A stretch of 34,611 bases of DNA from an uncultured Chelativorans sp. GTDB lineage: Bacteria; Pseudomonadota; Alphaproteobacteria; Rhizobiales; Rhizobiaceae. The notes beneath the pieces are model-generated. The model saw only the letters and a program-made list of their open reading frames with translations, was not told the DNA's origin and did not search any database. This document shows, one piece after another, positions 13,702 to 34,611 of this stretch (the stretch's first letter is position 1; every line of letters begins with the position of its first letter). The DNA is taken from the NCBI GenBank assembly GCA_964475605.1, contig CAYYZC010000006.1:1-34611 (forward strand), in the 5' to 3' direction. The position numbers and the translations under genes were made by a program.

Positions 13702-13742
13702 CGTTACGTCACGATCAATGCCACCTAGTTCGTTACGTGACG
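13702..13742. promoter_or_regulatory. Paired CGTTACGT(C/G)ACG sites in the late-operon leader
   Basis: GCCACCT-CGTTACGTCACG (13695-13713) and GCCACCT-AGTT-CGTTACGTGACG (13720-13742) lie 29 bp apart. The same core recurs at 21377, 21406 and 32692. Confidence 0.4.
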
Positions 13743-14757: not shown

Positions 14758-17100
14758 TCATTGCGCGGCCTCGTCGGAGGGGTCGAGCGGCCCGAAATCG
14801 GCCTCAGCGCCGACCGGGTCGCACACGATCCAGGCCCCGCTGTAGGGGTTGCTCTTGCTCTCGCGGATCCGATAGAGCGCGTAGCTTTGCCCCTGCACCT
14901 CGACTATACGGCGCTGCCCTTCGTCACCATCGAGCGCGGCAGCCAGGATCCGATCGCGGGCCACGGTCGCCTTGCAGCCGAGTTGCCGGGCCAGCAGGTC
15001 CACTAGGTCTTTCTGCTTCACCCGGCGTCTCAAGGGCATCAAGGCGACGATGGCCTGCGCGTCCGCATAGACCTGCTGGGCGTCCTGGTCGGCCTCGTCG
15101 TCCCCCGAAGCAGCCACCGCGGCGGCGTGGGCGTCCATGTCGAAGAGGACGGGCACGCCCACGCTGTCGCTGGGGTCGAGCAGACCGCCGGATCCATTGC
15201 CCAGGTCGACGCTTTCCATGCGGAACCACGTGGGCTTGAACGACCGGGCCGCGTAGTTCCCCTTCGCGCCATCGAGGCGCACCAGCCGGGCGGCATCTTC
15301 CTCCGGCACCTTCAGCTTCTCGGCCGACTGCTCCGACATGGCAGCCAGGGTGTAGGCGACACGCACGGCGCCGATCAGCGCGCCGGCACCGCGGGCGGCG
15401 TTCATGTCGCCGGCGCGGCTCTCCGTGTTGCCGCTGTGGTTCTTGACGCTGTGGTGCACCAGGTCGATCGCGCAGCCGGTCTCGCGGGCGATGTCGCGGA
15501 AGGCGCTGATGACCCGCTCCACCTCCTCGTTGCTGTTTTCGGCCACGCCTTCATGGGTGCTGACGAACGGGTCGACCGCCAGGAAGACGATTCCGTGCGC
15601 CCGGATCGTCTCCACGATCTCGGCCACGGCCTTGGTCTGCAGGACGGCGTCGTCCTTCTTCACCGCGACCACGAGGCGCTTCACCGCGCCCGTGCTGAAG
15701 AAGAACCGGGGCCTGATTTCGGCGAAGGGGATCTCGTAGCGGCGGCACATGCCGGCCACGCGGCGCAGGATCTCGTCCCGGTCGTCCTCGTGGTTGTGGA
15801 CCCAGACCGGCCCCGTGACGAAGACGTGCTCGCCCGTCAAATCCCGGCCGGTCGCGATCGCCAAGGCCGACAGCAGCGACATGGTCGACTTCGAGACGCC
15901 CGGGGCGCCGATGCCGCCGGTCACCACGCCGCGCAGGAACCGGCTGCCGAGCACCCAGGGGCGCGGCGGGATGGTCGTCGGGTCGAAGTCTTCCGGGATC
16001 TGCTCCGGCATGGGGGCGTAGCGCTTCGGCGGGGCCTCGTCCGGCACCTGCCCGAAGTCCTCGGCGGCGTCGGGTGCGATCGGCTCGAAGTCCAGCCCGG
16101 CCGCCTGATAGCCCCCGTGCTGGGCCGCCATGTCGACCAGGTACCGGAAGCCCACCTCGAACGGCGGCTTCATTCGGTCCCAATCGCTCCGGACCTCGTC
16201 GGGGTCGTTGCCGGCTGCGCGGTCGTTGCCTTCCCAGCGCGAGGCCCATTCCGCGAAGATCTCGAGCCCGCGGTCTTCATCGTCGGCGCAGGCCGCCTTG
16301 ATGGCGCAGCCCATGCGGATATAGTCCGTCCGGCCCGGGAAGCTGTCGTTGTCGTTCGGGGTAGCGCGGACGATCTCGGCGACGGTGTCCAGGTCCGGAG
16401 CCGCCAGGGCCGATTGGTCGATCAGGTCGCGCTCGGTTGCGGCCGCGCCCCGCCCCTCGTCCTCGATGCGCTCATAGCCCATCAGGTCGAGCGTCTCCAG
16501 CAGCTCGCCGAAGAAGTCGTCCACCATGGCGGCCGTGATCGGCGACAGCCCGTCCGGCCCCATATCGGCCGGGTGCCGGTCCCAGGTGTAGGGCCGCCCG
16601 GTCGCCGGGTGGATGCCGTCGACGACGTATTGCTGGCCGTGGCCGAGGAATTCGACCAAGTTCTGCGGCCCGCCGTTGGGGCTCTTGAACCAGACCCGCC
16701 GGCGCGTCAAAGGGGGCTGACCCTCGGCGAGGCGGTAGGGCAGCAGCTTCTTCGGGGCGCGGCCGGTGCGGATCGGCGCAGGCCCCAGGCGGCGCACGGC
16801 GATGGTGTGAGCCAGCTCGGCGGCGAGGCCGTCCAGGCAATCCAGGTCCACCCCGGGGAAGCGCGTAGCCCGCAGGCCGGTGTTCGCCCGGATGTAGTCC
16901 CACACCTCGACGTCGGCCGGCTTGGTGGCGTGCTTCATCCAATCGAAGGAGCGCCAGCCTTGCTGCCCGAGCAGCCCCGGCACCTTGCCGCGATCGGCGG
17001 CCCGGATCTTCGAGTGCGGGGACAGCGGCGCGTCGGGCGGGACGACGGGGATGATGTCGGCGAAGCCGGCGGCGTACCAGCGGGCGAAGGTGGCCGTCAT
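14758..17100 (-). CDS. Replicative primase-polymerase / helicase fusion (Prim-Pol N-terminus, PriCT-like middle, AAA_25/RepA-like ATPase)
   Basis: 780 aa. N-terminus ...[13 protein letters not shown]...DRGKVPG...[10 protein letters not shown]... is Prim-Pol-like. The middle ...[24 protein letters not shown]...FAEWASRW is PriCT-like. Walker A is [16 protein letters not shown] and Walker B region is IVFLAVDPF...DLVHHSVK. Confidence 0.85.
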
Positions 17101-18155
17101 GCCAGAAGCTCCTCAGTCAGGCAGGCGCCGTCGGCCGCGATGCGGGCTTCGGCCAGCGCGACATACTCGGGGTTCAGTTCGATGCCGACGTAGCGGCGCC
17201 ACAGCCGTTGAGCGACAAGGCCCGTAGTGCCTGCCCCGAAGAAGGGATCAAGGATCAGGTCGCCGGGGCGACTGCCAGCCTTTATGCACCGCTCGGCCAG
17301 GTCGGGCGGGAAGGTGGCGGAGTGGGCTTCCTTGAAGGGCTTCGGCGCGATCGTCCAGACATTGCGGGCGTTGCGGCCGGCGCCCCTTGGCGCGGCATCA
17401 AGGCCGCTTTGGTCGCTGCTGGCATACTGGGCGTGTCGGGGCGGCAGTCCCCGCTTCCGCGACTTGCGCGAGCCTGTGTGCGGGGCCTGTCCAGGGGGTG
17501 CGTAGCGGCCGCCCGTGAGGTCGTGGGGTGTCTTGCCGGTCGCCTCTTCCCGGATCGCGTCCGCGTCGTAGAAGTACGATTCCGACTTCGCCAACAGGAA
17601 CACCATCTCGTAGGCCGAGGTCGGGCGGTCCTTGACGCTCTCGGGCATCGGGTTGGGCTTGTGCCAGACGACGGCGCTGCGGAGATACCAACCATCGGCG
17701 CGCAGGGCGAATGCGACCGCCCAGGGAATTCCGATCAGGTCCTTCGACTTGAGGCCGGGCGTCCGCTTCAGGCTGCCGGTGCGCTCGCGCTTCGGATGCG
17801 CCTGGATCTGGCGGGCGGAAAGCATGCTGCCACCCTCCAGCGTGCCGGGATATTCGGCGCCGCGAGACTGAGCCCCCCAACTGCCGGCGTAGCTATCCCC
17901 CAGGTTCAGCCAGAGCGTCGCGTCGTCCCGGAGCACGTGGCGCACGCCGCGGAACACGTCGACTAGTTCGGCTATGTATGCTTCGGGCGTCGCCTCCAGC
18001 CCGATCTGTCCATCAACGCCATAGTCGCGCAGCCCGAAATATGGGGGGCTGGTGACACAGCACTGGACGGCGGCGGCCGGAATGTCTGCAAGGCGCTCGC
18101 GGGCGTCGCCGAGCAGGATAGCGGGCAGCGCCGGCGTTGCGTCGGCGGCGCTCAT
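17097..18155 (-). CDS. DNA methyltransferase, N4/N6 class (SPPY motif IV before motif I, beta-type order)
   Basis: 352 aa with ...[17 protein letters not shown]... and C-terminal ...[36 protein letters not shown] overlaps at both ends. Confidence 0.85.
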
Positions 18156-21094: not shown

Positions 21095-21340
21095 TCACGC
21101 CGCGCGAGGACGGAAGACTTTCGCCCCAAGCACTTCGGCGACGTGAGGCGGCATCTCGTCGGCGTAGTAGGTGCTCGGGTCGTAGCGGAACCAGTCGCGA
21201 CCGTCCTCAGTACGGAAGATGGCGAATGAGCCGGGGCGCTGTGCAGCGATGCGACTGGCGGCCTGATAGGTGCGGTGGAAGGAGAAGTCGAAGCCGTTGT
21301 TGTCCACCAGCTTCCAGGGATTGGAAATCCGCTTCGCCAT
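21095..21340 (-). CDS. Hypothetical protein (81 aa)
   Basis: MAKRISNPWKLVDNNGFDFSFHRTYQAASRIAAQRPGSFAIFRTEDGRDWFRYDPSTYYADE... has normal composition. Confidence 0.55.
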   Translation of the reverse strand: MAKRISNPWKLVDNNGFDFSFHRTYQAASRIAAQRPGSFAIFRTEDGRDWFRYDPSTYYADEMPPHVAEVLGAKVFRPRAA

Positions 21341-21376: not shown

Positions 21377-21416
21377 CGTTACGTAACGATTTAAGCAAGA
21401 AAAAAGTTACGTAACG
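21377..21416. promoter_or_regulatory. Two copies of palindrome (C)GTTACGTAAC(G), 28 bp apart, flanking an A-rich spacer
   Basis: CGTTACGTAACG 21377-21388 and GTTACGTAACG 21406-21416, with spacer ATTTAAGCAAGAAAAAA. They lie directly upstream of gene 21095..21340. Confidence 0.45.
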
Positions 21417-22833: not shown

Positions 22834-25409
22834 CCTTTCCGGTAGCGCCGACCACGCCACCCGGCCGCCGCGACAGGGCAGCCGGCAGCCCAGGCCGGCA
22901 GTTGCGTCATGATCTGTTCGAGTTCTTCGACCGAGCCTTCGCCGTGGCGGCGCTCGGCAACGATCTCGTCGTGCACGGTGAGGAGCAGCGGATACCCGGC
23001 GGTCTCGAGGCGCAGCATCGCTTCGGCCATCAGATCGCGGGCGATGGCCTGCACGCAGTTGTGGACGATGAACGGCCCATCCTCGCCCAACACCACGAAG
23101 CGGTGCCGCGGCCCGGCGTTCAGGATGTCGAAAACCGGTTCGTCACGTCCGGGGCCGAGAGCAAACGGTCCGGCGGACAGCCATGTGCCAGGCGTCCGAA
23201 CCGGTGCCCGGTCAAGTCCTTCGCACGATGATGCATTGCGCCAGCCTTTCTTGGTAAGCACGCGGTGGTCTTCGGTCATCCGGACACCCGAGAGGGCGAT
23301 CGTCGGCCGGGTGCCGTTGCAGACCACGCCGTCGTGGGCGACCCATTCGACGCCGTCCCAGAGCCAATCCGTGTCGCGAATATCCTGGAGCGGGACCCAG
23401 CCCCGGGTCGTCAGAACCGGCGCATCGCCGGCCAGACAGTTTTCCGTCAGCAGGCCCCCGTATGCCCATTGCCGGGACCACTGGCGGGTTTTCGGGTCGA
23501 CGCCCCAATAGCAGATGCTGTCCTTGATGACGGGCTGGCGGACGATCGCGATTCCGAGCCCGTCGTATTCGACAAGGGCATCGCCGAAGCGCCGGATGGC
23601 TTCGTCTTCGTCGGCGACCCGGATACGGGCCTCCTCGGTCCACGGCATCACCTTGGGCCGGATGTCCGGCGAGGCGTAGGCCAGCGGTCGGCCGCTCGGG
23701 AGGACCATCCAGAGGAAGCCGCCCTTGACCCGGAACCGGATCCGTCCGCGCGCCGCGCTGACGATCTGGCCCGGGTTGCGAATGGTTGCTTTGGCCGCGT
23801 CTTCGAGTTCAGCCCACAGCGCCACCGTCGCCGGGTGCGCCTTGCGCCAAGCTGTCTTGAGCCGGTCGGCTTCCGCGTCCGAGACCACAAGGCCGTAATT
23901 AGCGGCCATGGCCTGGAAGGCACCGACGCCGCCCTGGTAGCCGCAGCTCAGCTCCATGACCTTGCCGCGCTGGCGGAGCGGGTCGTCCACCTCGGCGACC
24001 GGCACCCCGAAGGCGTTGCTGTAGGCCAGGATGTAGAGGTCGGCACCGGTCCCGGCATCGAAGTCCCGGAACGCCTTAATCTTCCACGTCTCGCCAGCAA
24101 GCCAAGCCAGCACCCGGCCCTCGATGTTCGAGAAGTCGGCCGCGATCAGGTCATGCCCGTCGGAGGCCGTCATGCAGGCCCGCAGCAGGGCGGAGACCAC
24201 GGCCATGGGCGGGCCATACAGCAGCCCGACCGAGTCGATGTCGCCGGACAGGACGGCTTCGACGGCGTGTTCCGTCAGCAGGTTCAGCGCGTCGCCCTTG
24301 GCCTTCGTGCTCGAGGTCTGGGCGACTGTCAGCCGGGGGAAATTATGCGGCTGTACGAGGCGCCCGGCCCACCGGCCGGTGCCGGCACCGTGATAGAGCA
24401 GTAGGCCGCGGAGGCGTTCGTCTGCGCACACGGCCGCCAGCATGCTCTTGAGCTTGGCCGTGGACGACTTCGCCGCCTCGGCCCGGATTTCGACGGCGCG
24501 CCGGGCGGCCCCGGTCACATCGCCGTCGGCGAGCATGGCGCGCACCGCCGGCTTCGCGACGCTTTCGGTGTCGACGCCCTCTTCTTGGAGCCAACGGGTC
24601 AGTTCGGCCGTCTTCGTCGCCGCGGCCACCCGGCCGCCCGTCACCTCGCGCAGCTCGGCATTCAGCCGCGCAGCCGCGCGCCCGGCGAGATCCTGCGCGG
24701 CCCGCACAAGCTCCAGATCGCAGGCGATTCCACGGTCGTTGATGCGTTGGTCCAACAGGTAGATCTGCAGCTCGGTCGAGGTGAGCGCGCGCACCCGGCC
24801 GGCAACGGCCATCTCGGCCCGGACATCCTGGCGGCAATAGGCGTAGGTCGTCGCCAGCTTCTGCGGGTCGATCTGCCACTCGATGACCTCGTCGCCGTCG
24901 AGGGTGTAGCGGGCCGGGTCGAACTCGGCCATCACGCGGGCCGCTTCGTACTTGGCGCCGTCGGTCGGCCTCCAGATCCGGCGCGGCTTGGCCACCTGAA
25001 GCATGACCCGCGAGCCGGCGGCGTCCTTCTGCTGGGCGACACCGAGCACCCGGGCCGTACGCTCCAGGTCGCGCGGGAGGGCCATGGCGGCGGCTTCGGC
25101 GGCCGTGCAGACGAATTGTTCCAGGTTGGCCTCGGGCCAGCCGTAGCGCGGCCCGGCGATGCGCCACCAGATCAGCCGTTCGAACGCCGCGTTCCAGGCG
25201 CGGATCAGGCCGCCGTCGCGGACGTGGCGGACGATCGGTTCTGGGCAGGGCTGCCCCGGCAGCCACAGGCCGACCTCGTCGCCGCCGACGGACCAGGCGC
25301 CGCAGAGGATGTCGGTTGTCGGGTGCTCGGCGTAGGGGTAGGCGCCCGCCCGCTTGATATCGACGCGGGACCGGGTTTCCCAGTCCAGGGAGAGGACGGG
25401 GCCGGTCAC
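22830..25409 (-). CDS. Family-A DNA polymerase with 3'-5' exonuclease domain, interrupted by a mini-intein
   Basis: 859 aa with a GTG start overlapping the upstream TGA. ExoI is LSLDWETRS. Pol motif A is DLIAADFSNIEGRVLAWL, motif B is RQRGKVMELSCGYQGG and motif C is LLLTVHDEIV. The intein lies between motifs B and C (see next feature). Confidence 0.85.
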   Translation of the reverse strand: MTGPVLSLDWETRSRVDIKRAGAYPYAEHPTTDILCGAWSVGGDEVGLWLPGQPCPEPIVRHVRDGGLIRAWNAAFERLIWWRIAGPRYGWPEANLEQFVCTAAEAAAMALPRDLERTARVLGVAQQKDAAGSRVMLQVAKPRRIWRPTDGAKYEAARVMAEFDPARYTLDGDEVIEWQIDPQKLATTYAYCRQDVRAEMAVAGRVRALTSTELQIYLLDQRINDRGIACDLELVRAAQDLAGRAAARLNAELREVTGGRVAAATKTAELTRWLQEEGVDTESVAKPAVRAMLADGDVTGAARRAVEIRAEAAKSSTAKLKSMLAAVCADERLRGLLLYHGAGTGRWAGRLVQPHNFPRLTVAQTSSTKAKGDALNLLTEHAVEAVLSGDIDSVGLLYGPPMAVVSALLRACMTASDGHDLIAADFSNIEGRVLAWLAGETWKIKAFRDFDAGTGADLYILAYSNAFGVPVAEVDDPLRQRGKVMELSCGYQGGVGAFQAMAANYGLVVSDAEADRLKTAWRKAHPATVALWAELEDAAKATIRNPGQIVSAARGRIRFRVKGGFLWMVLPSGRPLAYASPDIRPKVMPWTEEARIRVADEDEAIRRFGDALVEYDGLGIAIVRQPVIKDSICYWGVDPKTRQWSRQWAYGGLLTENCLAGDAPVLTTRGWVPLQDIRDTDWLWDGVEWVAHDGVVCNGTRPTIALSGVRMTEDHRVLTKKGWRNASSCEGLDRAPVRTPGTWLSAGPFALGPGRDEPVFDILNAGPRHRFVVLGEDGPFIVHNCVQAIARDLMAEAMLRLETAGYPLLLTVHDEIVAERRHGEGSVEELEQIMTQLPAWAAGCPVAAAGWRGRRYRKG
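23058..23438 (-). mobile_element. Mini-intein (127 aa, no homing endonuclease domain) in the DNA polymerase
   Basis: ...GGLLTEN|CLAGDAPVLTTRGW...GVRMTEDHRVLTKKGW...PVFDILNAGPRHRFVVLGEDGPFIVHN|CVQAIARDL... The first Cys codon is 23438-23436, the terminal His-Asn is 23063-23058 and the +1 Cys is 23057-23055. Confidence 0.75.
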
Positions 25410-26905
25410 GCCAGCATCTCTTCGAGCAAGGCCGCCTCGGCCAGGTCGAGACGGCGGCGGATGTCCGCGACGTACTCGGCGCTCTGCTCAATGCCGATTG
25501 CGCCGAAGCCCTCTTCAAGCGCGGCCTGCAGGGTTGTGCCCGAGCCGGCGAAGGGGTCCAGGACGACACCGCCGGGCGGCGTGATTAGCCGACATAGCCA
25601 GCGCATCAGCGAGACGGGCTTTACCGTCGGGTGCTTGGACCCGGTACGATCCTTGGCGGTCGCCTTCGCGCTGTAGAAGAAGCGGGCGGCGGATCCGGTG
25701 TCGCCGCGGAAGGTCGATCCGCCTTCATCAACGTTCCCTTTGAACACACTGAACGTGTTCCTGAACTTATCCGCTCCGCGCTGATGAACCGGCGCCGCGG
25801 CGCCTTTGTTGTCGCCATAAGCCGCGAACGCTTCCAGAACCTCAGCGCTGCCGTCGTGAATGACGTTGGCAGGCCAGCGGCCTGCATCGTGCGTGCGACC
25901 GCAGCCCATCCCGAAATCCATGTTGCGACTGCGGCTATCAGCGTGGCCGCGGTCGCCGGAGCAGCTCCGGGCATATGCGGCATCGTCAACGGGTACGCGG
26001 CACCCGTCGATGTTCAGAGCGCCGGTGCCGAACTCGAGGACGTTGGCCGCCACCGTGCCGGCCAAGGGCTTGCGGGCGAGAACGATCGGCTCCCAAGCCG
26101 GTTTCAACGCCGTGCCCCATCCGGCCCACTGCTTGGCCGCCTGGGTGGCGGGGGCGGTAATGTCGCGCGAGGCGAACGAGAAGCGATGCTCGCCGAAACC
26201 GCCGGGCGCGGAGCCCTCGACGTACCGCCCGATGGTTTCCCTCTCGGCGGCTTCGTAAAGCTTTTCGAATTCGGCGGGCAGGTCGAGCAGCGCCACGATC
26301 TTGCCCCAGTGGTGCCGCGGAGGCATTCCGCCGCGGTGGTCGCAACGAGTCCAGTAGCACGACGACGCCTTGATGCCGAGGTGTCGGTCAATGTCCGCGT
26401 GCGTGAATGCCGAAGCTGACACGGCTGCGGCGTACTCTTCGGCGAAGGCACGCCACGCCAGGGGGTCTCCTCCAGCCTTGTCGATCGCCTTCGACACGTC
26501 CAGCGACTTAGGGAAGCCCGTCCCGTACAGCCACCCGAGTTGGTCCCGGATCTCGAACCCGGCATCCTCGACCGCGCAGGCCATCCGGTGATAGGTGCGA
26601 GTGCCCGAGAACGCGACCAGATGACCGCCGGGCTTGAGCAGCTCGTAGGCCAGAGCCCACGTCTCTGGCCGGAATGCGACGTCGCCGCCGTCCCAGGTCT
26701 GGCCCATGAAGCCGGCGCTCGCGCGGCGGTACACGCCCGTCGCGCCGTTCGACTTCGCAGGCGCTGCACTGGCCGAGCCGAACCGTTTCACGATGCTGGT
26801 CAGGTGGTACGGCGGGTCGGTGACGATCGCATCGACTTGGACGCCGTCGAGCGCCAGATCGAGCATCGCGACCGTGCAATCGGCGCGAATGACGCGGGCG
26901 GTCAT
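25406..26905 (-). CDS. DNA methyltransferase, N6-adenine/N4 class (DPPY), with a large insertion between motif IV and motif I
   Basis: ATG 26905 overlaps the upstream TGA (the track begins at GTG 26914). Sequence MTARVIRADCTVAMLDL...VDAIVTDPPYHL... continues to ...GGVVLDPFAGSGTTLQAALEEGFGAIGIEQSAEY. Confidence 0.85.
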   Translation of the reverse strand: MTARVIRADCTVAMLDLALDGVQVDAIVTDPPYHLTSIVKRFGSASAAPAKSNGATGVYRRASAGFMGQTWDGGDVAFRPETWALAYELLKPGGHLVAFSGTRTYHRMACAVEDAGFEIRDQLGWLYGTGFPKSLDVSKAIDKAGGDPLAWRAFAEEYAAAVSASAFTHADIDRHLGIKASSCYWTRCDHRGGMPPRHHWGKIVALLDLPAEFEKLYEAAERETIGRYVEGSAPGGFGEHRFSFASRDITAPATQAAKQWAGWGTALKPAWEPIVLARKPLAGTVAANVLEFGTGALNIDGCRVPVDDAAYARSCSGDRGHADSRSRNMDFGMGCGRTHDAGRWPANVIHDGSAEVLEAFAAYGDNKGAAAPVHQRGADKFRNTFSVFKGNVDEGGSTFRGDTGSAARFFYSAKATAKDRTGSKHPTVKPVSLMRWLCRLITPPGGVVLDPFAGSGTTLQAALEEGFGAIGIEQSAEYVADIRRRLDLAEAALLEEMLA

Positions 26906-27237
26906 CCCGGCCACCCCGGCACGGTGCGGTATTCGACCGGGCGGCCCGCGGCGGTGGCGTGCTGGACGCCGAAGCGCATTCCGGGGCTGATGCCGAGGTC
27001 CGTATAGACGACGGTCGCGTCGGCGACACGGCCCCAGGCCAACCCGGCGGCTATGCCCTGCTGGCGCTCGGCCGGGTCACTGTCGTCCAGCACGTCCGGC
27101 TGCGTGTAGAGCAGGTGAGACGCAATCGGCGCCTCGCCGCGGGACAGCGCATCGCGCAGGGAGGCGCGGGCGTACCGAACATTGCGATCGACGCCGCCCG
27201 CATAGGGGGATTCGAGGATGACGAGGCGGATGGGCAA
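26902..27237 (-). CDS. Hypothetical protein, first gene of the leftward operon (tentatively nucleoside 2-deoxyribosyltransferase-like/DUF4406-like)
   Basis: 111 aa with a TTG start (no in-frame ATG): (M)PIRLVILESPYAGGVDRNVRYARASLRDALSRGEAPIASHLLYTQ...VVYTDLGISPGM. The family assignment is from memory only. Confidence 0.5.
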   Translation of the reverse strand: MPIRLVILESPYAGGVDRNVRYARASLRDALSRGEAPIASHLLYTQPDVLDDSDPAERQQGIAAGLAWGRVADATVVYTDLGISPGMRFGVQHATAAGRPVEYRTVPGWPG

Positions 27238-27386: not shown

Positions 27387-28016
27387 CTAAACCGGCTCAC
27401 GGAGTCCTGTCACGGTGTGGACTACCTCGACGTCAGCCTGTGGCACGACGAAATCCCGAACGGCCGGACCGTATTCGCGTAGCGTGATTCCCTCGGCCGT
27501 CCAGCCCACCAGCTCCTTGATCAACACGGCTTGGTTCTGCCTGACCACGATCACGCCGTCGCCGGGTGACGGTGGGCGACGGGGCGACACGAACAAGAGC
27601 TGGCGAGGCCGGAATCGTGGCACCATGGAATCGCCCGTCACGTACATCGCGTAGGCGTCGCTGCAGGTGGCCGCCAGCCAGCTTGGGCAGTCTACCCAAT
27701 CAATAGGGCCGTCACCCAGGAACATTTCCTGGTCGGCCCCAGCTCGCGCGGCGGCCCGGACCGGGATCTGCTTGGCGCCCGAAGCCGGTTGCGGCGGGGC
27801 CGCGGACGTTGGTCGGCTCCCGTTCAGTTCCGGCAGGTATTCAGTGGGGTCGCCGCCGAGGGCCTCGGCGAATTTGACGGCCAAGTCGAGGGTGATGCGG
27901 CGTTCGCCGCGCTCCAGCTTCGCGACATAGCCCTGTGACGATCCGATTTTCTCGGCGAGCTGCTCCTGCGTCAGCCGGGCCGCAATGCGGCGGTCGCGTA
28001 ATACGTTGGCACTCAT
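27387..28016 (-). CDS. CI/LexA-like repressor (XRE HTH + S24 peptidase domain)
   Basis: 209 aa. HTH is LTQEQLAEKIGSSQGYVAKLERGER. The S24 domain has Ser nucleophile VTGDSMVP and Lys LIKEL. Divergent from a cro-like gene. Confidence 0.85.
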   Translation of the reverse strand: MSANVLRDRRIAARLTQEQLAEKIGSSQGYVAKLERGERRITLDLAVKFAEALGGDPTEYLPELNGSRPTSAAPPQPASGAKQIPVRAAARAGADQEMFLGDGPIDWVDCPSWLAATCSDAYAMYVTGDSMVPRFRPRQLLFVSPRRPPSPGDGVIVVRQNQAVLIKELVGWTAEGITLREYGPAVRDFVVPQADVEVVHTVTGLREPV

Positions 28017-28052
28017 CGACTTTTTCTCTCCTGCGACACCGGGCCTCCCCGC

Positions 28053-28141
28053 CGTTATGCCGCTCTGTCATGACAAAATCAATGCCCCTTCCGATTTTGG
28101 CTTGACCTGTTGGATTATGACAAGATATTCCTACTTGGCAT
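28053..28141. promoter_or_regulatory. Divergent repressor/cro promoter-operator region
   Basis: On the minus strand, TTGATT (28082-28077), an 18-nt spacer and ATAACG (28058-28053) face the repressor gene. On the plus strand, TTGACC (28102-28107), a 16-17 nt spacer and GATATTC (28124-28130) face cro. Sites present are CCGATTTTGGCT 28091-28102, CCTGTTGGATTA 28106-28117 and CCTACTTGGCAT 28130-28141, plus palindrome TGTCATGACA 28067-28076. Confidence 0.35.
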
Positions 28142-28209
28142 GAAGCGGGCCGCGCGGTAATCCAAACCAGCCTGTCCCGCGACCCGAGATCACAATATCG
28201 CAGGCCCCC

Positions 28210-28413
28210 ATGATCTTAGACGCATGGCTGCAACAGGCCGGCATGACCGAGCAGGCCCTTGCCACAAAGGTGGGCGTGACGCAGTCGGCCATCCATAAAT
28301 ACCGACGCGGGCAGCGGCGCCCGAATTACGAGCGCGCACAGCAGATATCGGCGGTTACGGGCGGCGCGGTCACGATCGCCGACCTGATGTCCCGGCCGAA
28401 GGCCTCATCATGA
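28210..28413 (+). CDS. Cro/YdaS-like HTH regulator
   Basis: 67 aa, ...MTEQALATKVGVTQSAIHKYRRGQRRPNYERAQQISAVTGGAVTIADL. Divergent from the repressor. Confidence 0.75.
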   Translation: MILDAWLQQAGMTEQALATKVGVTQSAIHKYRRGQRRPNYERAQQISAVTGGAVTIADLMSRPKASS

Positions 28414-28925
28414 CGGCGGTTATGATCGGCATCGACCCCGGGCTCAAAGGCGCGATCGCCTTTCACCGGAGCGGAGCCTTGACTGTCCACGACCTGCCCT
28501 TGGCCCAGCGCCGCGGAAAAGCCGAAGTCGACATCGCGGCGCTGTCCCACCTGATTGCGGACGAAGTCGGCCGGTCCTCGGTCGAAGCCGTGATCGAGGA
28601 AGTCAACGCCATGCCCGAACAGGGCGCCGTCTCGATGTTCCGCTTCGGCATGACGTATGGGGCACTGCGCGGCCTGCTGGCGGGACGGCACATCGCGGCC
28701 ACGTTGGTCCGGCCGACCGAGTGGAAGAAGGCCCTTCGGGTATCCGCCGACAAGGCCGAAGCGATATCCCGCGCGTCCGAGCTGCTGCCGGAATCGGCCC
28801 CGCTGTGGACGGTGCGGCGGGGCCACTGCACCAAGGAGCAGGCATCCGGCCGGGCCGAGGCCGCCCTGCTGGCTCTTTGGGGCCGGCGGCACCTGCAAGC
28901 CGACGTCGAGGCCATGCTGCGATGA
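28410..28925 (+). CDS. RuvC-like Holliday junction resolvase (phage type)
   Basis: 171 aa, MTAVMIGIDPGLKGAIA...VIEEVNAMPEQG...WKKAL... (D/E catalytic pattern). ATGA overlap with cro. Confidence 0.65.
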   Translation: MTAVMIGIDPGLKGAIAFHRSGALTVHDLPLAQRRGKAEVDIAALSHLIADEVGRSSVEAVIEEVNAMPEQGAVSMFRFGMTYGALRGLLAGRHIAATLVRPTEWKKALRVSADKAEAISRASELLPESAPLWTVRRGHCTKEQASGRAEAALLALWGRRHLQADVEAMLR

Positions 28926-29746
28926 CCAGCGCCCTCGTCAAAAAGCGGGTGGAGCAGGACAAGCTCACCCGGGCTTACCGGGTCGCCAACGCCCGCGCGC
29001 TGACGGAGATCCGCGAGCAGTTTCCCGCGGTCGCCGCCTTCGCCGACTGGCTCGCCACGGATCCGTCCCCGGACGATCGGGGCCGCGCGATCCGGCTGAT
29101 ATCCGAAACCCTCAACCCCATAGACGGCATCTCCGATCCGCTGTGGGACGAGCCCGAAACCACCTTCAGGGCGCTGCTGCGACTGACGGTGCACACGCGG
29201 CCGACCGTTACCCCAGCGGCCCACAACAGGAGCGTATCCATGCTGGACATCAACATCAAGATCAGCGAGCCCGGCGACGTGGTGAAGGTCCGCGAGCTGT
29301 TCGCGGCGTTCGGCGCGCAGTTCGCAGCCGCTTCCGCTTCCGCTTCCGTGATGACGCCGGAGATTGCCGGCACGATAGCCAAGCTGGCGACGGAACCTCA
29401 GCCCGAGGCGAAAGCCCAGCCCGAAGCCCTGGCGCCGACCGAAGCGCCGACGCAGCCGGCCACGCGCGGCCGGGGCCGCCCGCGGAAGGATGCCCAGGTC
29501 GAGACGAAGGAGCCCGCGCCCGAGGTGAAGGCCGAGCCCGAAGCGGCGCCGGCGGAGCAGGCGGCCCCCGAAGCCCCGGCCGACATCACGCCCGAGGCCG
29601 CGAGGGAGGCCTGCCGCGCCTTTGCGCAGAAGCACGGCCCGATGGCGCTGAAGGCGGTCTGGGCGGAACTCGGCGTCAGCACCTTCAGCGACGTGCCGGC
29701 GGACAGGTATCCGGCGCTGGTCGAGCGCCTGGCGAAGGGGGTGTGA
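28922..29746 (+). CDS. Hypothetical protein with Pro/Glu/Ala-rich linker containing an AT-hook (RGRGRPRK)
   Basis: Internal ATG 28922 overlaps the RuvC TGA. 274 aa. The AT-hook codons are 29465-29488. Confidence 0.6.
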   Translation: MTSALVKKRVEQDKLTRAYRVANARALTEIREQFPAVAAFADWLATDPSPDDRGRAIRLISETLNPIDGISDPLWDEPETTFRALLRLTVHTRPTVTPAAHNRSVSMLDINIKISEPGDVVKVRELFAAFGAQFAAASASASVMTPEIAGTIAKLATEPQPEAKAQPEALAPTEAPTQPATRGRGRPRKDAQVETKEPAPEVKAEPEAAPAEQAAPEAPADITPEAAREACRAFAQKHGPMALKAVWAELGVSTFSDVPADRYPALVERLAKGV

Positions 29747-29748
29747 GG

Positions 29749-30972
29749 GTGACCGAGCCCCACGCAACCCGCGCCCATGCCGACCTTGGCGCGTCGGCCG
29801 CCTATCGGTGGATGGCCTGCCCCGGCTCCATCCGCCTCATCGCGACCGTGCCCGAGGACGTCCGCAACGTCACCTCGCCCCACGCCCTCGAAGGAACGAT
29901 CGCGCACGGGCTGGCCGCGCTGTGCCTCCAGAACGGCCAGGAGGCGGCCGAGTGGTCCGACCGGACGCTGCCCGAGAAATTCGGCGGCTACCGGATCGAC
30001 GCGGGAGACATGCCCGAGGCAGTCCAGACCTACGTCGACTATGTCCGGACCTCGTACCGCGAAGGCGACACCGTCCTGATCGAGCATAAGTTCGACCTCG
30101 GCAACATGGGCGCCCCCGCGCCCATGTTCGGGACGTCGGACTGCGTCATCTACCGCCCGGCCGAACGCAAGCTTCATGTCATCGACTACAAGCACGGTCG
30201 CGGCGTAGCCGTCGAGGCGAAGGACAATCCGCAGCTCCGGTACTACGCTCTCGGGGCCGTGCTCTCGCTCCCGGCCGACTGGGTCGTCAGCGGGGTGCAG
30301 GCGACCATCGTGCAGCCCCGGTCGCCGCACCCGGAAGGCCCGATCCGGCACGACACCCTCGACGCCTTCGACCTGACGGAGTGGTCGGCCGAGCTGTTCG
30401 CCGCAGCCCGGCGGACCCTGGAACCCGACGCGCCCCTGGCGGCTGGCGACCACTGCAAGTTCTGCCCCGCCGCCGGCACCTGCGCCACCCGGGCGAAGCA
30501 CAACATGGCCGTGGTTGCGATGCAGGCCGAAGCCGACTTCTCCGGTACCGAGATCATCGTGCCGCCCTCGGCCGACAGCCTCACCCCAGAGCAGGTCGGG
30601 AAGATCCTCCAGCAGGCCGACGCGGTCGAAAAGTGGCTGGCGTCGGTGCGTGACCGGGCGAAGGCCGACCTTGCCGCCGGCCGGCCGGTGCCGGGCTGGA
30701 AGCTGGTTGAAGGCCGGCAGGGCAACCGCGCATGGATCGATGAACTCGACGCGGCCATGGCCCTCGCCGAAGCCGGCCTCGGGGACGAGGAGATCTACGA
30801 GCGGAAGCTGATCAGCCCGACCACGGCGGAAAAGCTGGTCGGCAAGAAGGGCTACAAGGCCCTGGCCGACTTCGTCATTCGCAAGCCCGGCGCCCCTGCC
30901 CTGGCGCCGGAGTCCGACAAACGGCCTCCGCTCGCGCTGAGCGCGGCCGACGACTTCAACGCGATCGCATAG
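29749..30972 (+). CDS. DUF2800-type PD-(D/E)XK nuclease with Cas4-like Cys cluster
   Basis: GTG 29749 (or 29743), just after the upstream stop. Motifs seen are ...AYRWMACPGS..., ...TSDCVIY..., ...HVIDYKHGRG..., ...QLRYYALG... and ...DHCKFCPAAGTC... The upstream 364 codons of the listed 771-aa ORF are an out-of-frame shadow. Confidence 0.75.
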   Translation: MTEPHATRAHADLGASAAYRWMACPGSIRLIATVPEDVRNVTSPHALEGTIAHGLAALCLQNGQEAAEWSDRTLPEKFGGYRIDAGDMPEAVQTYVDYVRTSYREGDTVLIEHKFDLGNMGAPAPMFGTSDCVIYRPAERKLHVIDYKHGRGVAVEAKDNPQLRYYALGAVLSLPADWVVSGVQATIVQPRSPHPEGPIRHDTLDAFDLTEWSAELFAAARRTLEPDAPLAAGDHCKFCPAAGTCATRAKHNMAVVAMQAEADFSGTEIIVPPSADSLTPEQVGKILQQADAVEKWLASVRDRAKADLAAGRPVPGWKLVEGRQGNRAWIDELDAAMALAEAGLGDEEIYERKLISPTTAEKLVGKKGYKALADFVIRKPGAPALAPESDKRPPLALSAADDFNAIA

Positions 30973-31028
30973 GCGGGCCGTCGCGCCCGCCGTCCTCTTC
31001 AACACGCCAAGACGACAAGGATTCCGAG

Positions 31029-31685
31029 ATGGCCGACCGTTACGAATATTCCGACAAGGCGCGCACGCCCCTGTTCCGCGGGGCCTTCGTCCGGGTCATC
31101 GAGCCCGAGGACGTGAAGAACCAGGACGGCACTACCTCGAAGGTGTGGGGCCTCACCGCCATCTGGCCGAAGGGTACCGACATGGCCCCGGTCAAGAACG
31201 CCATCACCCAGGCCGCCAAGAAGCTGTGGGGCGACAAGGCCGGCACGATGCTGCAGCACGCCAAGTTCAAGAACCCGCTGAAGGACGGCGCCGCCCAGGT
31301 CGACCGTGAAGGGAACCTCTACGCCGGCTTCGAGGCGGGCCAGACCACGGCGAAGCTGTCGACGAAGCTGCGCCGGCCCGGCCTCGTGGATCGGCAGGTG
31401 CGCCAGATCGCGGACGCCGACGGAAAGACCCTCGTCGACAAGGACCTGGATCTCTACGAGACCGTCGAGGCCAACGCCATCTTCAGCGGCTGCTGGTTCT
31501 TCGCGACCTTCTCGGCGCAGGCCTACGACCGCTCCGACGGCTTTGGCGTCTCGTTGAAGCTGGAAAACCTCCAGCTCGTGAAGCAGGACGAGCGCCTCGG
31601 CGGGAGCGGCGCCTCGCGGCCCGAGGACGATTTCGGGGTGATCGACAGCGGCGCCTCCGACGACCTGGCCGACCTTCTGGGCTGA
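31029..31685 (+). CDS. DUF2815-type single-stranded DNA-binding protein
   Basis: 218 aa, MADRYEYSDKARTPLFRGAFVRVIEPED..., with an acidic C-terminal tip ...SGASDDLADLLG. It follows DUF2800, as in known DUF2800-DUF2815-PolA modules. Confidence 0.7.
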   Translation: MADRYEYSDKARTPLFRGAFVRVIEPEDVKNQDGTTSKVWGLTAIWPKGTDMAPVKNAITQAAKKLWGDKAGTMLQHAKFKNPLKDGAAQVDREGNLYAGFEAGQTTAKLSTKLRRPGLVDRQVRQIADADGKTLVDKDLDLYETVEANAIFSGCWFFATFSAQAYDRSDGFGVSLKLENLQLVKQDERLGGSGASRPEDDFGVIDSGASDDLADLLG

Positions 31686-31695
31686 TCAAACGCGG

Positions 31696-31721
31696 CGCGC
31701 CGGGACTGAGCGCCCGGCGCG
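31696..31721 (+). terminator. Hairpin terminator after the SSB-like gene
   Basis: CGCGCCGGG (31696-31704), an 8-nt loop and CCCGGCGCG (31713-31721), followed by TCCTTTCC. Confidence 0.45.
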
Positions 31722-31743
31722 TCCTTTCCGGACGAGGTATGCG

Positions 31744-32394
31744 ATGGTTCAGGTTTTCCAGTTCGACGAGTTTTTCGCCCGGTCGGCCGATGTGATGGAG
31801 GAAGGAAGCGAGCTTGAACGAGCGCTGGCCCGGCTTCCGGCGCTGACGGAGAACGGCCCGTGGCTAGCCGGAGGCGCGCTGCGCCGGACGCTCCTGCGCA
31901 AGCCCCTGGAGAGCGACTTCGACTTCTTCTTCGCCAGCGCGGAGCAGTTCGAGGCGTTCTGCGCGAAGGTCAAGGCCGACGGCGGCTATACGGTGTCGAG
32001 CAGCCAGCACAACACGACGTTCCGCCTCCCCTCTACGGCCCCGAAGCCAATCGGGGAGGACGAGTTCGCGCCCGCCGAGCCCGAAATCATCGTGCAGGCA
32101 ATCACGACGCAGTGGTACGGCTCGCTCGCGGATGTGGTCGACAGTTTCGACTTCACGCTGTGCCAGTTCGGGTACGACGGCACGCATTTGGTCTGCGGCG
32201 ATTATGCCCTGTGGGACCTGGGCCGCGGGAGCCTCGTCCCGCACAAGCTCACCTTCGCGACGGCCAGCCTGCGCCGGCTGCTGAAGTACACCAAGCAGGG
32301 CTACCGGATCTGTTCCGGCGGCCTCTCCGACATGCTCGAACAGGTGCTTCGGGCGCCGGAGATCGTCCGGGCCGAAACGACCTATATCGATTAA
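31744..32394 (+). CDS. Minimal nucleotidyltransferase resembling the head domain of class II CCA-adding enzyme/poly(A) polymerase
   Basis: 216 aa. LAGGALRRTLLRKPLESDFDFFF fits GGxxRxxLLx5DxD. DVVDSFDFTLCQFGYDG...ALWDLGRGSL fits the RRDFTINAxAY...GxxDL motif. GAGG RBS. Confidence 0.65.
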   Translation: MVQVFQFDEFFARSADVMEEGSELERALARLPALTENGPWLAGGALRRTLLRKPLESDFDFFFASAEQFEAFCAKVKADGGYTVSSSQHNTTFRLPSTAPKPIGEDEFAPAEPEIIVQAITTQWYGSLADVVDSFDFTLCQFGYDGTHLVCGDYALWDLGRGSLVPHKLTFATASLRRLLKYTKQGYRICSGGLSDMLEQVLRAPEIVRAETTYID

Positions 32395-32404
32395 CGGGGC
32401 CGAC

Positions 32405-32659
32405 ATGGCATCCGTACGGGACAACGACCTGCTCGACCGCTGGCTGCTGAGCGGCTTCGGCGTCGATGCGGGCACACACAGGGCCGCGCTGGAGGAGATC
32501 CAGGAGCTGCGCGACCAGCTCGACACCATCCAGTCCGAGACCGCAGACGAGGCGGAGGCCCTGCGCGAGCGGGTGCGGGTCGTCCTCGAAAAGGCGGCGG
32601 ACGATGCCGACGCGGCCTTCGACGGGACGGCGGATGCGGCCGATGCGGTTGACGAGTGA
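32405..32659 (+). CDS. Highly acidic small protein (84 aa)
   Basis: By my count it has 23 Asp/Glu and 8 Arg/Lys. Coiled-coil-like ...AALEEIQELRDQLDTIQSETADEAEALRERVRVVLEKAADDADAAFDG... It starts 10 nt after the NTase stop. Confidence 0.55.
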   Translation: MASVRDNDLLDRWLLSGFGVDAGTHRAALEEIQELRDQLDTIQSETADEAEALRERVRVVLEKAADDADAAFDGTADAADAVDE

Positions 32660-32736
32660 CCCGCTTTTCCGCTTCCCCATCAGTATATGTTCACGTAACG
32701 TTCTAGCACTATGGTATGGAGTAGGAGGCGAGCCCC

Positions 32737-33072
32737 ATGCAAACATCGGCCACGGTCACGGCTCTCGGCTGCGCGGCGGAAATCCGATCAATCCGGGCTC
32801 TACTCGCGCACGCCTGCGCCGCTACCGAGTTGGCAGCGGAGGGCGGGGCGCCGGCCCAGGTCCCTTGTCAGGTGCCTGACCTGGTAGCCCGCTATTCCCA
32901 GCTCGCCGCCGGCGCCGGCGTCCCGCTGCCAGCCGGTGACGAGGACCGGGACGCCTATCTGGAGATTGTGCGTGAGGTCTGCGGTCGGGCGGTGGCCGGC
33001 CTGGACCCTGTCCACCGGCTCGACTGGTCGGTCGCCTGCACGCTGCTGCGCCGGGTCGCCTCGGCCGAATAA
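32737..33072 (+). CDS. Hypothetical protein (111 aa)
   Basis: GGAGTAGGAGG RBS. It is preceded by an AT-richer 77-nt spacer carrying CACGTAACG (32692-32700). Confidence 0.5.
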   Translation: MQTSATVTALGCAAEIRSIRALLAHACAATELAAEGGAPAQVPCQVPDLVARYSQLAAGAGVPLPAGDEDRDAYLEIVREVCGRAVAGLDPVHRLDWSVACTLLRRVASAE

Positions 33073-33084
33073 TTCCCGCCTACG

Positions 33085-33131
33085 AATCGCCGCCGGGCTG
33101 CTTGGTCTATCCGAGCCGCCCGGCGGCGATT
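33085..33131. terminator. Bidirectional hairpin between convergent genes
   Basis: AATCGCCGCCGGGC (33085-33098), a 19-nt loop and GCCCGGCGGCGATT (33118-33131). It lies between stop 33072 (+) and the integrase stop 33138 (-). Confidence 0.5.
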
Positions 33132-33137
33132 TCGATT

Positions 33138-34409
33138 CTAGGCCGTCTCTTCCGGCGCCGGTTCGGCCCCTGAGGACGCTTCGCCCAGGAGCCCGGCCAG
33201 GTAATCGCCCCAGGCCTGCAACGCCGCGCGCATGGCCTTCTCACGCCGGCTCCGCTCATAGACGCTGGTCACCCCGAGCCGGCCTTTGGGGCTGTGGTTC
33301 AGGATGCGCTGGATGGTCGTTTCTTCGACGTCCAGGTCTTCCCCCATCCGCGTCGCGACCGTGCGGCGCAGGTCATGGATGGTCCACGGCTCCGCCAGGT
33401 CGGCCGCTTTGTGCAGCCGCTCCGCGGCGCGGCGCCAGCCGGCGAAGGGGGCTTGGCCCGCGGACGCGTGTACCGCCATGCGACGGCCGGGAAAGACATA
33501 CGCGCCCTCGCCCGGCAGGGCCTCCAGCACGGCGACCGCCTGCGCAGACAGCGGCAGCCGGTGCTCACGCTTCCCCTTTGTCCGTGCGGCCGGGACGGTC
33601 CAGGTCTTGGCCTCGATGTCGATCTCCGACCAGCGGGCCTGCGTCGCTTCTTCGCGACGGGCGCCCGTCAGCAGCAGGAACCGGACGAGCGGGCCGATAA
33701 CCGGTTGCTCGTCTGCATCGGCCGTACGGACCACCTGAACGATCTCGTCCGGCTCCAGCACCCGCTCCTTTTCGCGCTCGGCCACCATGCGCCGGATGTC
33801 GGCCGCTGGGTTCGCCGCGATCTCGCCGGCCTCGACCGCCCAGCCGAACAGCGATTTGCCTTTGGTCATCACCCGATTGACCTGCGCCCGGTACAGTGGC
33901 TCGCCGTCTTCGTCTCGGGCATTGCGCATGTCTTCGAGCAGCGCGTAGACGTGCTTCCGCTCGACGGTCCGGATATCCATACTGCCGAGTTTCGGCAGTA
34001 CATGTAGCCGTAGCAGGCGCTCGTCTTCGCCCGCAGACCGGTTGCCCTTGGCGCGCTGGCTGGCAATGAACCGGGCGGCGGCATCGCTCACGGTTGTGAT
34101 TTTCGGCGGCTCGGAAGCCGGATTCGGGGCACCTGCCGGCGTCGCGCCGGGATCCGCGCCGGCCGCTACCCGGCGCAGGGCTTCCAGCGCCGCCGCGCGC
34201 GCTTCGGCCAGCCCTACCGTCGGGTACCGTCCGAGCGCTAGGCGCCGCGGCGCGCCGCCCCATCGGTACCTCAAGGCCCACGACTTTACGCCGCTGGCCG
34301 TTACGCGGAGCTGCAGGCCGGTGACGGCTGCGTCGGTGATTTCTGCCACGCCCTTAGCGGGCGCCTTGGCCGCCTGCACGGCCCGGTCAGTCAGCGGTTT
34401 CTTGGCCAT
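33138..34409 (-). CDS. int: Tyrosine integrase, P4-like (DUF4102 arm-binding N-terminus)
   Basis: Start at M20 (MAKKPLTDRAVQAAKAP...LQLRVTASGVKSWALRYRWGG...); an alternative ATG is at 34466. Catalytic region ...LLTGARREE..., ...HDLRRTVATRM..., ...ILNHS..., ...VYERS. Confidence 0.85.
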   Translation of the reverse strand: MAKKPLTDRAVQAAKAPAKGVAEITDAAVTGLQLRVTASGVKSWALRYRWGGAPRRLALGRYPTVGLAEARAAALEALRRVAAGADPGATPAGAPNPASEPPKITTVSDAAARFIASQRAKGNRSAGEDERLLRLHVLPKLGSMDIRTVERKHVYALLEDMRNARDEDGEPLYRAQVNRVMTKGKSLFGWAVEAGEIAANPAADIRRMVAEREKERVLEPDEIVQVVRTADADEQPVIGPLVRFLLLTGARREEATQARWSEIDIEAKTWTVPAARTKGKREHRLPLSAQAVAVLEALPGEGAYVFPGRRMAVHASAGQAPFAGWRRAAERLHKAADLAEPWTIHDLRRTVATRMGEDLDVEETTIQRILNHSPKGRLGVTSVYERSRREKAMRAALQAWGDYLAGLLGEASSGAEPAPEETA

Positions 34410-34416
34410 ATCCGTT

Positions 34417-34436
34417 CTGTGGGCAACTGTGGGCAA
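34417..34436. repeat. Perfect tandem decamer CTGTGGGCAA x2
   Basis: 34417-34426 and 34427-34436. On the minus strand this reads TTGCCCACAG-TTGCCCACAG, 8 nt upstream of the preferred integrase ATG. Confidence 0.6.
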
Positions 34437-34611
34437 AATTGCGTGGGGATACGATATGCCAACCATGCCGCCAATGGCTACACCAATTTGTCATTAACTC
34501 AAGGGCATCTAGGGACTATTGAGGGCCAAACCCGCACAAGCCCTGACCTTTGGTCACGTCTCCCAGACGTGAAGCCTCCCTGTTCAACTCGCCCGGAACC
34601 GTATGGCTTCC

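Follow-up and report, generated by a model that had tools for sequence, protein, structure and literature searches.

A predicted minimal nucleotidyltransferase of the Gad2 family (PF26128) and two independent small genes between the single-stranded DNA-binding protein and integrase genes of a temperate-phage contig

What are three small genes, the first seemingly encoding a half-size nucleotidyltransferase (NTase), doing between the single-stranded DNA-binding protein (SSB) gene and the convergent integrase gene of a temperate phage? The question is raised by a stretch of DNA, 34,611 nucleotides (nt) in length, from an uncultured Chelativorans sp. (GenBank assembly GCA_964475605.1, contig CAYYZC010000006.1, positions 1 to 34,611 of the forward strand). 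This whole stretch, ‘the window’, is a 34.6-kb temperate-phage contig of 68% GC content. An initial annotation of it, made from the letters alone, had placed there open reading frames (ORFs) of 216, 84 and 111 amino acids (aa), all three of which are found where they had been placed, between an Enc34-type SSB gene and the integrase gene. It had also proposed that the first two form a pair, NTase plus acidic partner, corresponding to no system that could be named. The answer reached here is in the main corrective. That is, this is not an unnamed NTase-antitoxin system; the NTase family is instead already named, as Pfam PF26128 or Gad2 (Gabija anti-defence 2), and its short forms are already included under that name. 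The three genes are termed here g1, g2 and g3:

31744-32394, plus strand: g1, predicted short-form Gad2-family (PF26128) nucleotidyltransferase with a head of class II CCA-adding/poly(A) polymerase-like type and a partial neck, 216 aa
32405-32659, plus strand: g2, acidic coiled-coil protein, 84 aa
32737-33072, plus strand: g3, orphan ORF and probable gene, 111 aa

The nature of g1 is indicated first of all by an alignment of 38 family sequences (41-72% identity), within which G43, G44, D58, D60 and D136 are invariant, i.e., the GG...DxD...D signature of Pol-beta catalysis is complete. F135 stands, along with these other motif residues, in an invariant or near-invariant column, and further conservation is seen in an RRLLKYxxQG block and at the C-terminal D216, also invariant. 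Coding statistics are strong as well, with a GC content at third codon positions (GC3) of 0.87 and 0.58 bits/codon, small genes of the window otherwise ranging over 0.34-0.74. The AlphaFold2 model based on the same alignment has a predicted local distance difference test score (pLDDT) of 92.3 and a predicted template-modelling score (pTM) of 0.87. When that model is compared, using Foldseek, with structures of the Protein Data Bank (PDB), the top 32 matches all are class II CCA-, CC- or A-adding enzymes or else E. coli poly(A) polymerase (probability 1.00, E 4e-6 to 1e-3, template-modelling (TM) score 0.40-0.57 on the query), with g1 covering the N-terminal half of these 344-517 aa targets (TM 0.20-0.34 on the target). 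The head fold of class II CCA-adding enzymes and of poly(A) polymerase I (PAP I), i.e., the PF01743 head (PDB 3wfp, 3aql, 3h37, 1miv), is thus shared by the g1 model, at a TM of 0.5-0.57 on the query, with the GG...DxD of motif A and the DFT of motif B aligning. In the viral structure library (BFVD), uncharacterised phage proteins of ~200 aa come out on top (E 5e-13). As modelled, g1 is a minimal Pol-beta-type NTase of the class II (CCA-adding/poly(A) polymerase) type, and probably is catalytically active. The earlier recognition of a class II head domain, without the body and tail that hold tRNA, therefore has been borne out.

Comparison with PF01743 and with CCA-adding enzyme structures, which had been suggested as a check, otherwise comes out in two parts: the fold matches, but g1 itself has no PF01743 match above the Pfam threshold. 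PF01743 is the sole Pfam family matched by more than one family member, which is by 12 of the 38, weakly, at a best E of 2.7e-4. Searches of g1 against Pfam (a set without the PF26128 model), NCBIfam and PADLOC gave no match, and neither g1 nor the family profile significantly matches the sequences of solved structures (PDB chains). Among PHROGs, g1 matches phrog_1614, ‘nucleotidyltransferase’, at 1.7e-11, plus three families of unknown function. With hhalign, the family profile aligns with E. coli PAP I at 65% (E 6e-5) and with the E. coli CCA-adding enzyme at 12%, in a register which puts GGALRR...SDFDF on motif A, SFDFT on RRDFT/RRDLT, and SLRRLLKY on the PLRVLRxARF region.

What g1 does not share with the class II enzymes, being half their size, is the set of neck, body and tail domains used in tRNA or RNA binding, of which body and tail are missing altogether. 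Nor, by alignment as well as by hhalign, does the family possess the RRD of motif B, where (S)FD stands instead, or EDxxR, where T/A-S-x-RR stands instead. In class II enzymes it is the motif B arginines together with the EDxxR templating motif that select ribose and base. As both are missing here, nucleotide specificity is not something that may be read across from CCA enzymes.

To what family, then, does such a protein belong? A large protein database holds 269 relatives of g1 at E<=1e-3, and the 120 of these that are listed are nearly all 197-217 aa in length. Each of these 120, the protein of the window itself among them, carries a precomputed PF26128 annotation, and it is gene tables of related contigs that name PF26128 ‘Gad2’; nothing turned up in a literature search for PF26128. 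Gad2 owes its definition to Bacillus phage SPbetaL7, in which a 400-aa protein is required for resistance to Gabija, with a 394-aa homologous protein of a prophage in Brevibacillus laterosporus being sufficient for Gabija inhibition (bioRxiv 10.1101/2023.05.01.538930). The same study predicts, using AlphaFold, an NTase domain in Gad2, reports toxicity of SPbetaL7 Gad2 upon overexpression, and includes short forms of 214, 228 and 278 aa in its table of homologs. The mechanism of Gad2 is listed as not elucidated in a 2026 review (PMC12904381).

Against the verified Brevibacillus Gad2 sequence, which is that of Supplementary Table 10 of bioRxiv 10.1101/2023.05.01.538930, BLASTP of g1 gives an E of 9e-8 with 22% identity over 172 aa. 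Using hhalign, the g1 family profile aligns with residues 21-166 of that protein at 97.8% (E 8e-13), with three motif blocks in register. Gad2, that is, has a homologous NTase domain with the same blocks as are found in g1, i.e., xAGGxxxxxx...(N/S)DxDxxF, FDFT(x)C and (L)R(x)xKYxxxGY. Like Gad2, g1 is phage-encoded and has no fixed partner gene, and PHROGs 1614, 4400, 18122 and 27100 are matched by both.

There are differences, however. With BLASTP and hhalign alike, g1 aligns only within Gad2 residues 15-166, and its 216 aa, versus the 394-400 aa of Gad2, leave absent a C-terminal half of ~230 aa which is not encoded nearby either. Particularly, the N-terminal halves of three Gad2-family proteins match the NTase gene in 62-69 fetched loci (tblastn), whereas their C-terminal halves match nothing in any of 82 loci, which rules out a split Gad2 with its C-terminal half present as a neighbouring gene. 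The two-part, ~400-aa architecture of experimentally defined Gad2 therefore is not that of g1. Settings differ too, with the g1 subfamily found in the recombination operon of high-GC temperate phages of proteobacterial type and verified Gad2 found instead in the SPbeta gad1/gad2 locus. By these sequence comparisons g1 is a member of the Gad2 family (PF26128) in the Pfam sense, as a short form consisting of the catalytic domain only, and is distant from both of the function-tested proteins. The notion that nothing nameable is involved thus falls away.

One feature of the short forms may be set down separately. Residues 214-216 of g1 (32383-32391) constitute a C-terminal Y-(I/V/L)-D, with Y214 present in at least 90% of sequences and D216, as noted, in all. 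This ...YID tip is disordered in the AlphaFold model, is absent from full-length Brevibacillus Gad2, and looks like a docking peptide for a partner.

In its distribution the NTase family is overwhelmingly viral: the collections searched yielded 53 viral loci, in phages ranging from Proteobacteria- to Firmicutes-type, versus 11 in 185,579 reference genomes. Among GenBank phages, tblastn of g1 found one weak partial match only, in Stenotrophomonas phage DLP_6, and blastn of the 6.6-kb region 28000-34611 matched no more than 77 nt, within the gene of the exonuclease, implying that there is no cultured close relative. Relatives at 59-67% identity keep the order PDDEXK - SSB - NTase, and in the window as well as in fetched loci L001, L004 and L010 the NTase gene comes straight after that of the SSB. 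The gene which then follows is one for a GapR/DUF2312 DNA-binding protein of balanced charge in L001, L002, L004, L005 and L010, but for an unrelated 71-aa protein in L006-L008 (70% identity). A census of 116 same-strand flanking ORFs in 59 loci returned ERF, YqaJ, Enc34 SSB, SSB, NinB, DUF3799/PDDEXK, PolA, PolB-exo, HNH and methylases, i.e., those neighbours that could be identified serve recombination and replication for the most part, and no recurrent NTase partner was found among these ORFs. Close relatives L016 and L017 possess the same operon without an NTase.

Certain of the NTase matches are incomplete. In L062 (4001-4643), no single intact ORF extends over the match, the best tblastn segment being 4386-4643 only, and this gene may be frameshifted or interrupted. 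In L076 and L077 (Roseomonas chloroacetimidivorans) the match runs up to a contig edge or nearly so, and probably is just truncated there.

If g1 has no recurrent partner, is g2 at least its partner here? The description upon which that pairing had been based is exact, that is, g2 starts 10 nt after g1 and is strongly acidic, with 23 D/E versus 8 K/R, a net charge of -15 in 84 aa. Its coding signal is strong (GC3 0.87, 0.73 bits/codon). A word index of 5.8 billion proteins holds only self-matches of g2. When 1.84 billion representatives were searched exhaustively with HMMER, six relatives emerged; g2 is a real gene, with a family that is very small. At the N-terminus this family has the motif DNDLLDxWLxxxFGVDxxTxRxALEEIQxLRD, and after it a coiled-coil which is acidic and variable. 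Invariant within it are D6, D8, L9, D11, W13, G19, D21, R26, E31, Q33, L35 and R36 (window 32405-32540). The g2 model consists of two helices, one short and one long (pLDDT 86, pTM 0.49), for which a fold search found no structural analogue (all E>2), and PHROGs gave no match. That g2 might be a diverged GapR/DUF2312 (PF10073) was considered and rejected: there is no Pfam match, the g2 family aligns with neighbouring GapR proteins at 3% by hhalign, and in loci L016 and L017 GapR and a g2 relative each have a gene of their own.

It is these last two loci which bear most directly on a pairing. Both g2-relative loci examined, L016 (2756-3016) and L017 (1174-1488), are of related phages and have no NTase gene nearby, their orders being PDDEXK - SSB - GapR - 48 aa - g2-like - DNMK ... 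HNH ... integrase and SSB - GapR - g2-like, respectively. Members of the g2 family, as an aside, always reside close to the SSB gene, in the early region of temperate phages that are related. Conversely, of 72 NTase loci outside of this phage, none has a relative of g2 and likewise none has a relative of g3. For the 64 of them that were drawn from collections of viruses and genomes, this is the outcome of a tblastn search that reached out to 4 kb. Other contigs carrying g2 and g3 all come from one sample series and are of the same phage. Looking for co-occurrence of the gene pair, which had been offered as a check as regards other prophages, therefore turned up none in these loci. That g1 and g2 occur independently argues strongly against a two-gene system, whether toxin-antitoxin or enzyme-inhibitor. 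Genes g2 and g3 are instead independent small accessory genes in a variable slot between SSB and integrase, rather than partners of the NTase.

When g1 and g2 should be expressed is a matter of their surroundings, of which the following are relevant:

27387-28016, minus strand: CI-like repressor, divergent from the early operon (Pfam HTH_3 1.7e-15, Peptidase_S24 2.4e-11)
28210-28413, plus strand: Cro-like HTH gene, first in the operon holding g1 to g3 (Pfam HTH_3 3.3e-11, P22_Cro 3.9e-4)
28721-29746, plus strand: 341-aa ORF, flanked by the Cro-like and PD-(D/E)XK nuclease genes (no match in Pfam)
29746-30972, plus strand: DUF2800/PD-(D/E)XK nuclease, a recombination exonuclease (Pfam DUF2800 2e-99, PDDEXK_1 7e-14)
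31029-31685, plus strand: Enc34/gp2.5-type single-stranded DNA-binding and annealing protein, the SSB (Pfam PF10991 3.2e-31; phrog_112 1.6e-25)
31694-31723, plus strand: GC-rich stem-loop 3' of the SSB gene, 11-bp stem (fold -26.9 kcal/mol, z -1.0)
32660-32736, plus strand: AT-richer leader of g3 (53% GC versus 68% for the window), with ACGTAACG at 32693-32700 and an AGGAGG ribosome-binding site 8 nt before the ATG
33083-33134, both strands: strong convergent (bidirectional) stem-loop between g3 and integrase (plus strand -44 kcal/mol, z -7.3; minus strand -39.2 kcal/mol, z -5.1), also found in a terminator scan
33138-34466, minus strand: tyrosine integrase (Arm-DNA-bind_3 plus Phage_integrase), convergent on the g1 to g3 operon (Pfam 9.7e-21, 6.1e-20; phrog_1 3.2e-65)

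The plus-strand operon thus runs Cro-like gene, 341-aa ORF, PD-(D/E)XK nuclease, SSB, g1, g2 and g3. Most genes of the window lie on the minus strand, including those for TerL, a PrimPol-helicase, two N6/N4 methyltransferases, a PolA-type polymerase and the CI-like repressor. As the operon starts with a Cro-like gene opposite a CI-like repressor gene, g1 and g2 probably are early genes of the lytic phase rather than lysogen cargo. The initial annotation had described this as a slot for prophage cargo, and that description holds to the extent that the SSB-to-integrase interval does vary among related phages, but not as regards expression, the Cro-led operon pointing to the lytic phase. No sigma-70-like promoter was found in 29500-34611.

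The two stem-loops differ in how they have fared. The one beside the integrase gene had been described as a bidirectional hairpin and indeed folds strongly on both strands. The one following the SSB gene had been described as a hairpin terminator closing the recombination operon. It does have its 11-bp GC stem, but it is trailed by a UCCUUUCC tail only rather than by a U-tract, and shuffled GC-rich sequence folds as well as it does; for both of these reasons it is not a canonical terminator. Probably it is an attenuator or a stabiliser of mRNA 3' ends, as opposed to a full terminator closing the operon, and a scan downstream of it found no promoter-like site. Loci L001 (5868-5892), L004 (5952-5977) and L010 (4954-4979) have at the same post-SSB position a perfect GC hairpin of 10-11 bp, unrelated in sequence and also lacking a U-tract. 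In L016 and L017, which have no NTase, GapR follows straight after SSB with no hairpin, with a 1-nt overlap in L016 (2252) and a 5-nt gap in L017 (827-833). Hairpin and NTase together look like one insertable cassette, present in some of these phages and absent from others.

Several features of the window stand apart from the foregoing. An unannotated gene of ~316-326 aa is found in L001, L003 and L010 at the region corresponding to that of the 341-aa ORF, whose product may be the recombinase/annealase partner of the PD-(D/E)XK nuclease. The two N6/N4 DNA methyltransferase genes lie at 17100-18155 and 25409-26914, both on the minus strand, and there is a DUF7768 gene as well. No tRNA or tmRNA gene such as might mark an att site is found in the window.

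As for g3, it is a probable gene. Its codon score is weak, at 0.20 bits/codon, though still the best of the six frames over its span, and the AGGAGG ribosome-binding site precedes it. Gene calls include it on 7 contigs, all from a single sample series, and it has only a self-match among 5.8 billion proteins, and matches nothing in Pfam, NCBIfam or PADLOC. An antisense ORF of 71 aa within g3 (32800-33015, minus strand; GC3 0.87) scores 0.25 bits/codon over a shorter span, and since this is slightly above g3's own score, the coding status of g3 is not fully secure.

The g3 leader had been said to be AT-richer and to carry a motif. AT-richer it is, and CACGTAACG is present at 32692, but this 9-mer is not enriched in the window, with 7 matches versus 5 expected when one mismatch is allowed. 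Its 8-mer core, ACGTAACG, occurs in 6 exact copies versus 0.35 expected, a number reached in 0 of 100 shuffles, and is the core of a palindrome, CGTTACGTAACG, the whole of which surrounds some of the copies. The copies are as follows:

13702-13709 and 13731-13738 (minus strand): ACGTAACG
21377-21388: ACGTAACG, starting at 21377 and at 21381
21409-21416: ACGTAACG
32693-32700: ACGTAACG, in the g3 leader

All lie in AT-richer intergenic leaders, i.e., of the packaging block, of the gene starting at 21340, and of g3. The 8-mer probably is a binding site of a phage regulator and, as it occurs in the g3 leader as well as in these others, g3 probably belongs to a separate regulon under such a regulator.

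What might g1 be for? The favoured explanation, to which I give about an even chance, is that g1 is an active, minimal, class II-like NTase of the Gad2 family which is made early and counters host defence by nucleotidyl transfer. Under that explanation g1 would be transcribed as part of the Cro-led operon, following the recombination genes, via read-through of the weak stem-loop at 31694-31723. The early product would then disable a host immune system through nucleotidyl transfer, with Gabija, or else another nuclease/helicase system that senses DNA ends, the leading candidate as target.

A number of considerations weigh against that explanation. At 22%, identity between g1 and the verified Gad2 is low, and the entire Gad2 C-terminal half is missing from g1 both in cis and, nearby, in trans. 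Since anti-Gabija data come from two full-length proteins only, activity is not confidently transferable to short forms. The assignment to PF26128 rests on precomputed annotation, the host may not carry Gabija, and both the timing of expression and read-through of the 31694-31723 stem-loop are themselves inferred. Placement among recombination and replication genes, lastly, fits with phage DNA metabolism equally well.

The latter indeed is the basis of the alternative which survives best, although it is a possibility we would rate at well under even, that the NTase serves the phage's own DNA or RNA metabolism. It would do so by template-independent tailing or capping of the 3' ends of recombination or replication intermediates, or instead by PAP-like tailing of host RNAs, resulting in shut-off. 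Consistent with this are the mostly ERF, YqaJ, SSB, NinB, PDDEXK, PolA and PolB-exo neighbours of the subfamily, the position of the NTase gene directly after that of the SSB, and a profile closer to PAP I than to the CCA-adding enzyme. So too is the toxicity of SPbetaL7 Gad2, along with that of gp22 of Pseudomonas phage Emajogi, an NTase annotated as Gad2-family which is cytotoxic at high induction (2026 preprint). The NTase is dispensable, however, in that L016 and L017 share this operon but not the NTase gene, a pattern typical of accessory or anti-defence genes as opposed to core functions of replication. Early recombination modules, furthermore, are also common sites of anti-defence genes, so the context does not discriminate between the two, and the sole functional data for the Gad2 family are anti-Gabija.

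A more speculative version would join the two explanations. Short Gad2-like NTases might be the ancestral, self-sufficient module, tailing or capping the 3' ends that arise from phage recombination (SSB, ERF, exonuclease) and thereby hiding those ends from Gabija-like, end-sensing defences, with the ...YID tip docking a recombination or replication partner. This is considered here to be doubtful. If true, such masking of 3' ends would supply the mechanism of Gad2 and would define a class of ‘substrate-masking’ anti-defence enzymes.

A different possibility, of about the same low standing as the last, concerns g2 independently of g1: that it is an anti-restriction or anti-defence protein, acting as an acidic nucleic-acid mimic or coiled-coil decoy. 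Its charge, its strong coding signal, and its location in a variable early-gene slot, both in this phage group and in L016 and L017, are what would be looked for. A conserved N-terminal motif followed by a variable acidic helix, moreover, resembles a binding module with a variable tail. The predicted single long helix, with its pTM of just 0.49, is nevertheless unlike known DNA mimics, which are compact. There is no fold or profile match to point to such a role, and relatives number only the six already mentioned.

Less probable still, and in our view hardly credible, is that g1 repairs tRNA 3' CCA ends that have been cut by host anticodon or acceptor-end nucleases, as a phage CCA-adding enzyme would. 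The closest solved folds are, to be sure, CCA-, CC- and A-adding enzymes, and phage as well as giant-virus proteins annotated as tRNA nucleotidyltransferases are found among weaker BFVD matches. A g1 of 216 aa versus 370-450 aa, however, corresponds to the N-terminal half alone. It is missing the tRNA-holding body and tail along with the ‘RR’ of motif B and EDxxR, is below the PF01743 threshold, and resides in a window without tRNA genes. The proposal had been made in the initial annotation and is made unlikely by these absences.

Weakest is the other reading made there, of g1 and g2 as a toxin-antitoxin or abortive-infection pair that protects the lysogen, in which an NTase toxin acting on tRNA 3' ends would be neutralised by g2. 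A 10-nt spacing suggestive of translational coupling, an acidic g2 and the overexpression toxicity of Gad2-family NTases notwithstanding, this is largely refuted by distribution and is given next to no credence here, for in the loci examined NTases occur without g2 and g2 relatives without NTases, the post-NTase slot holds unrelated proteins that vary by lineage, the family is overwhelmingly viral, the Cro-led operon faces away from the CI-like repressor gene and so implies lytic rather than lysogen expression, and there is no match in PADLOC or to AbiEii/DUF1814 or MenT, with MenT-type structures absent from the top 50 fold matches. MenT and AbiEii (DUF1814; type IV/VII toxin-antitoxin) likewise are small NTases of the Pol-beta superfamily without tRNA-binding body domains, and are toxic when overexpressed, as has been reported also for some Gad2-family members. 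They differ from g1 in profile and fold, in having an adjacent antitoxin, where no conserved one stands beside the g1 family, and in residing in chromosomal or prophage defence loci rather than in a phage early operon.

For those annotating phage genomes, a ‘Gad2 family’ label on short proteins should not be read as indicating anti-Gabija activity. What is mildly new is that the subfamily consisting of the catalytic core only is large, highly conserved over very different hosts, and usually located in recombination/replication modules. Few inhibitors of bacterial defence systems are known to be enzymatic rather than stoichiometric, Gad2 itself being among them, and the ~200-aa short form represents a handy minimal model with which to find the substrate of the Gad2 family.

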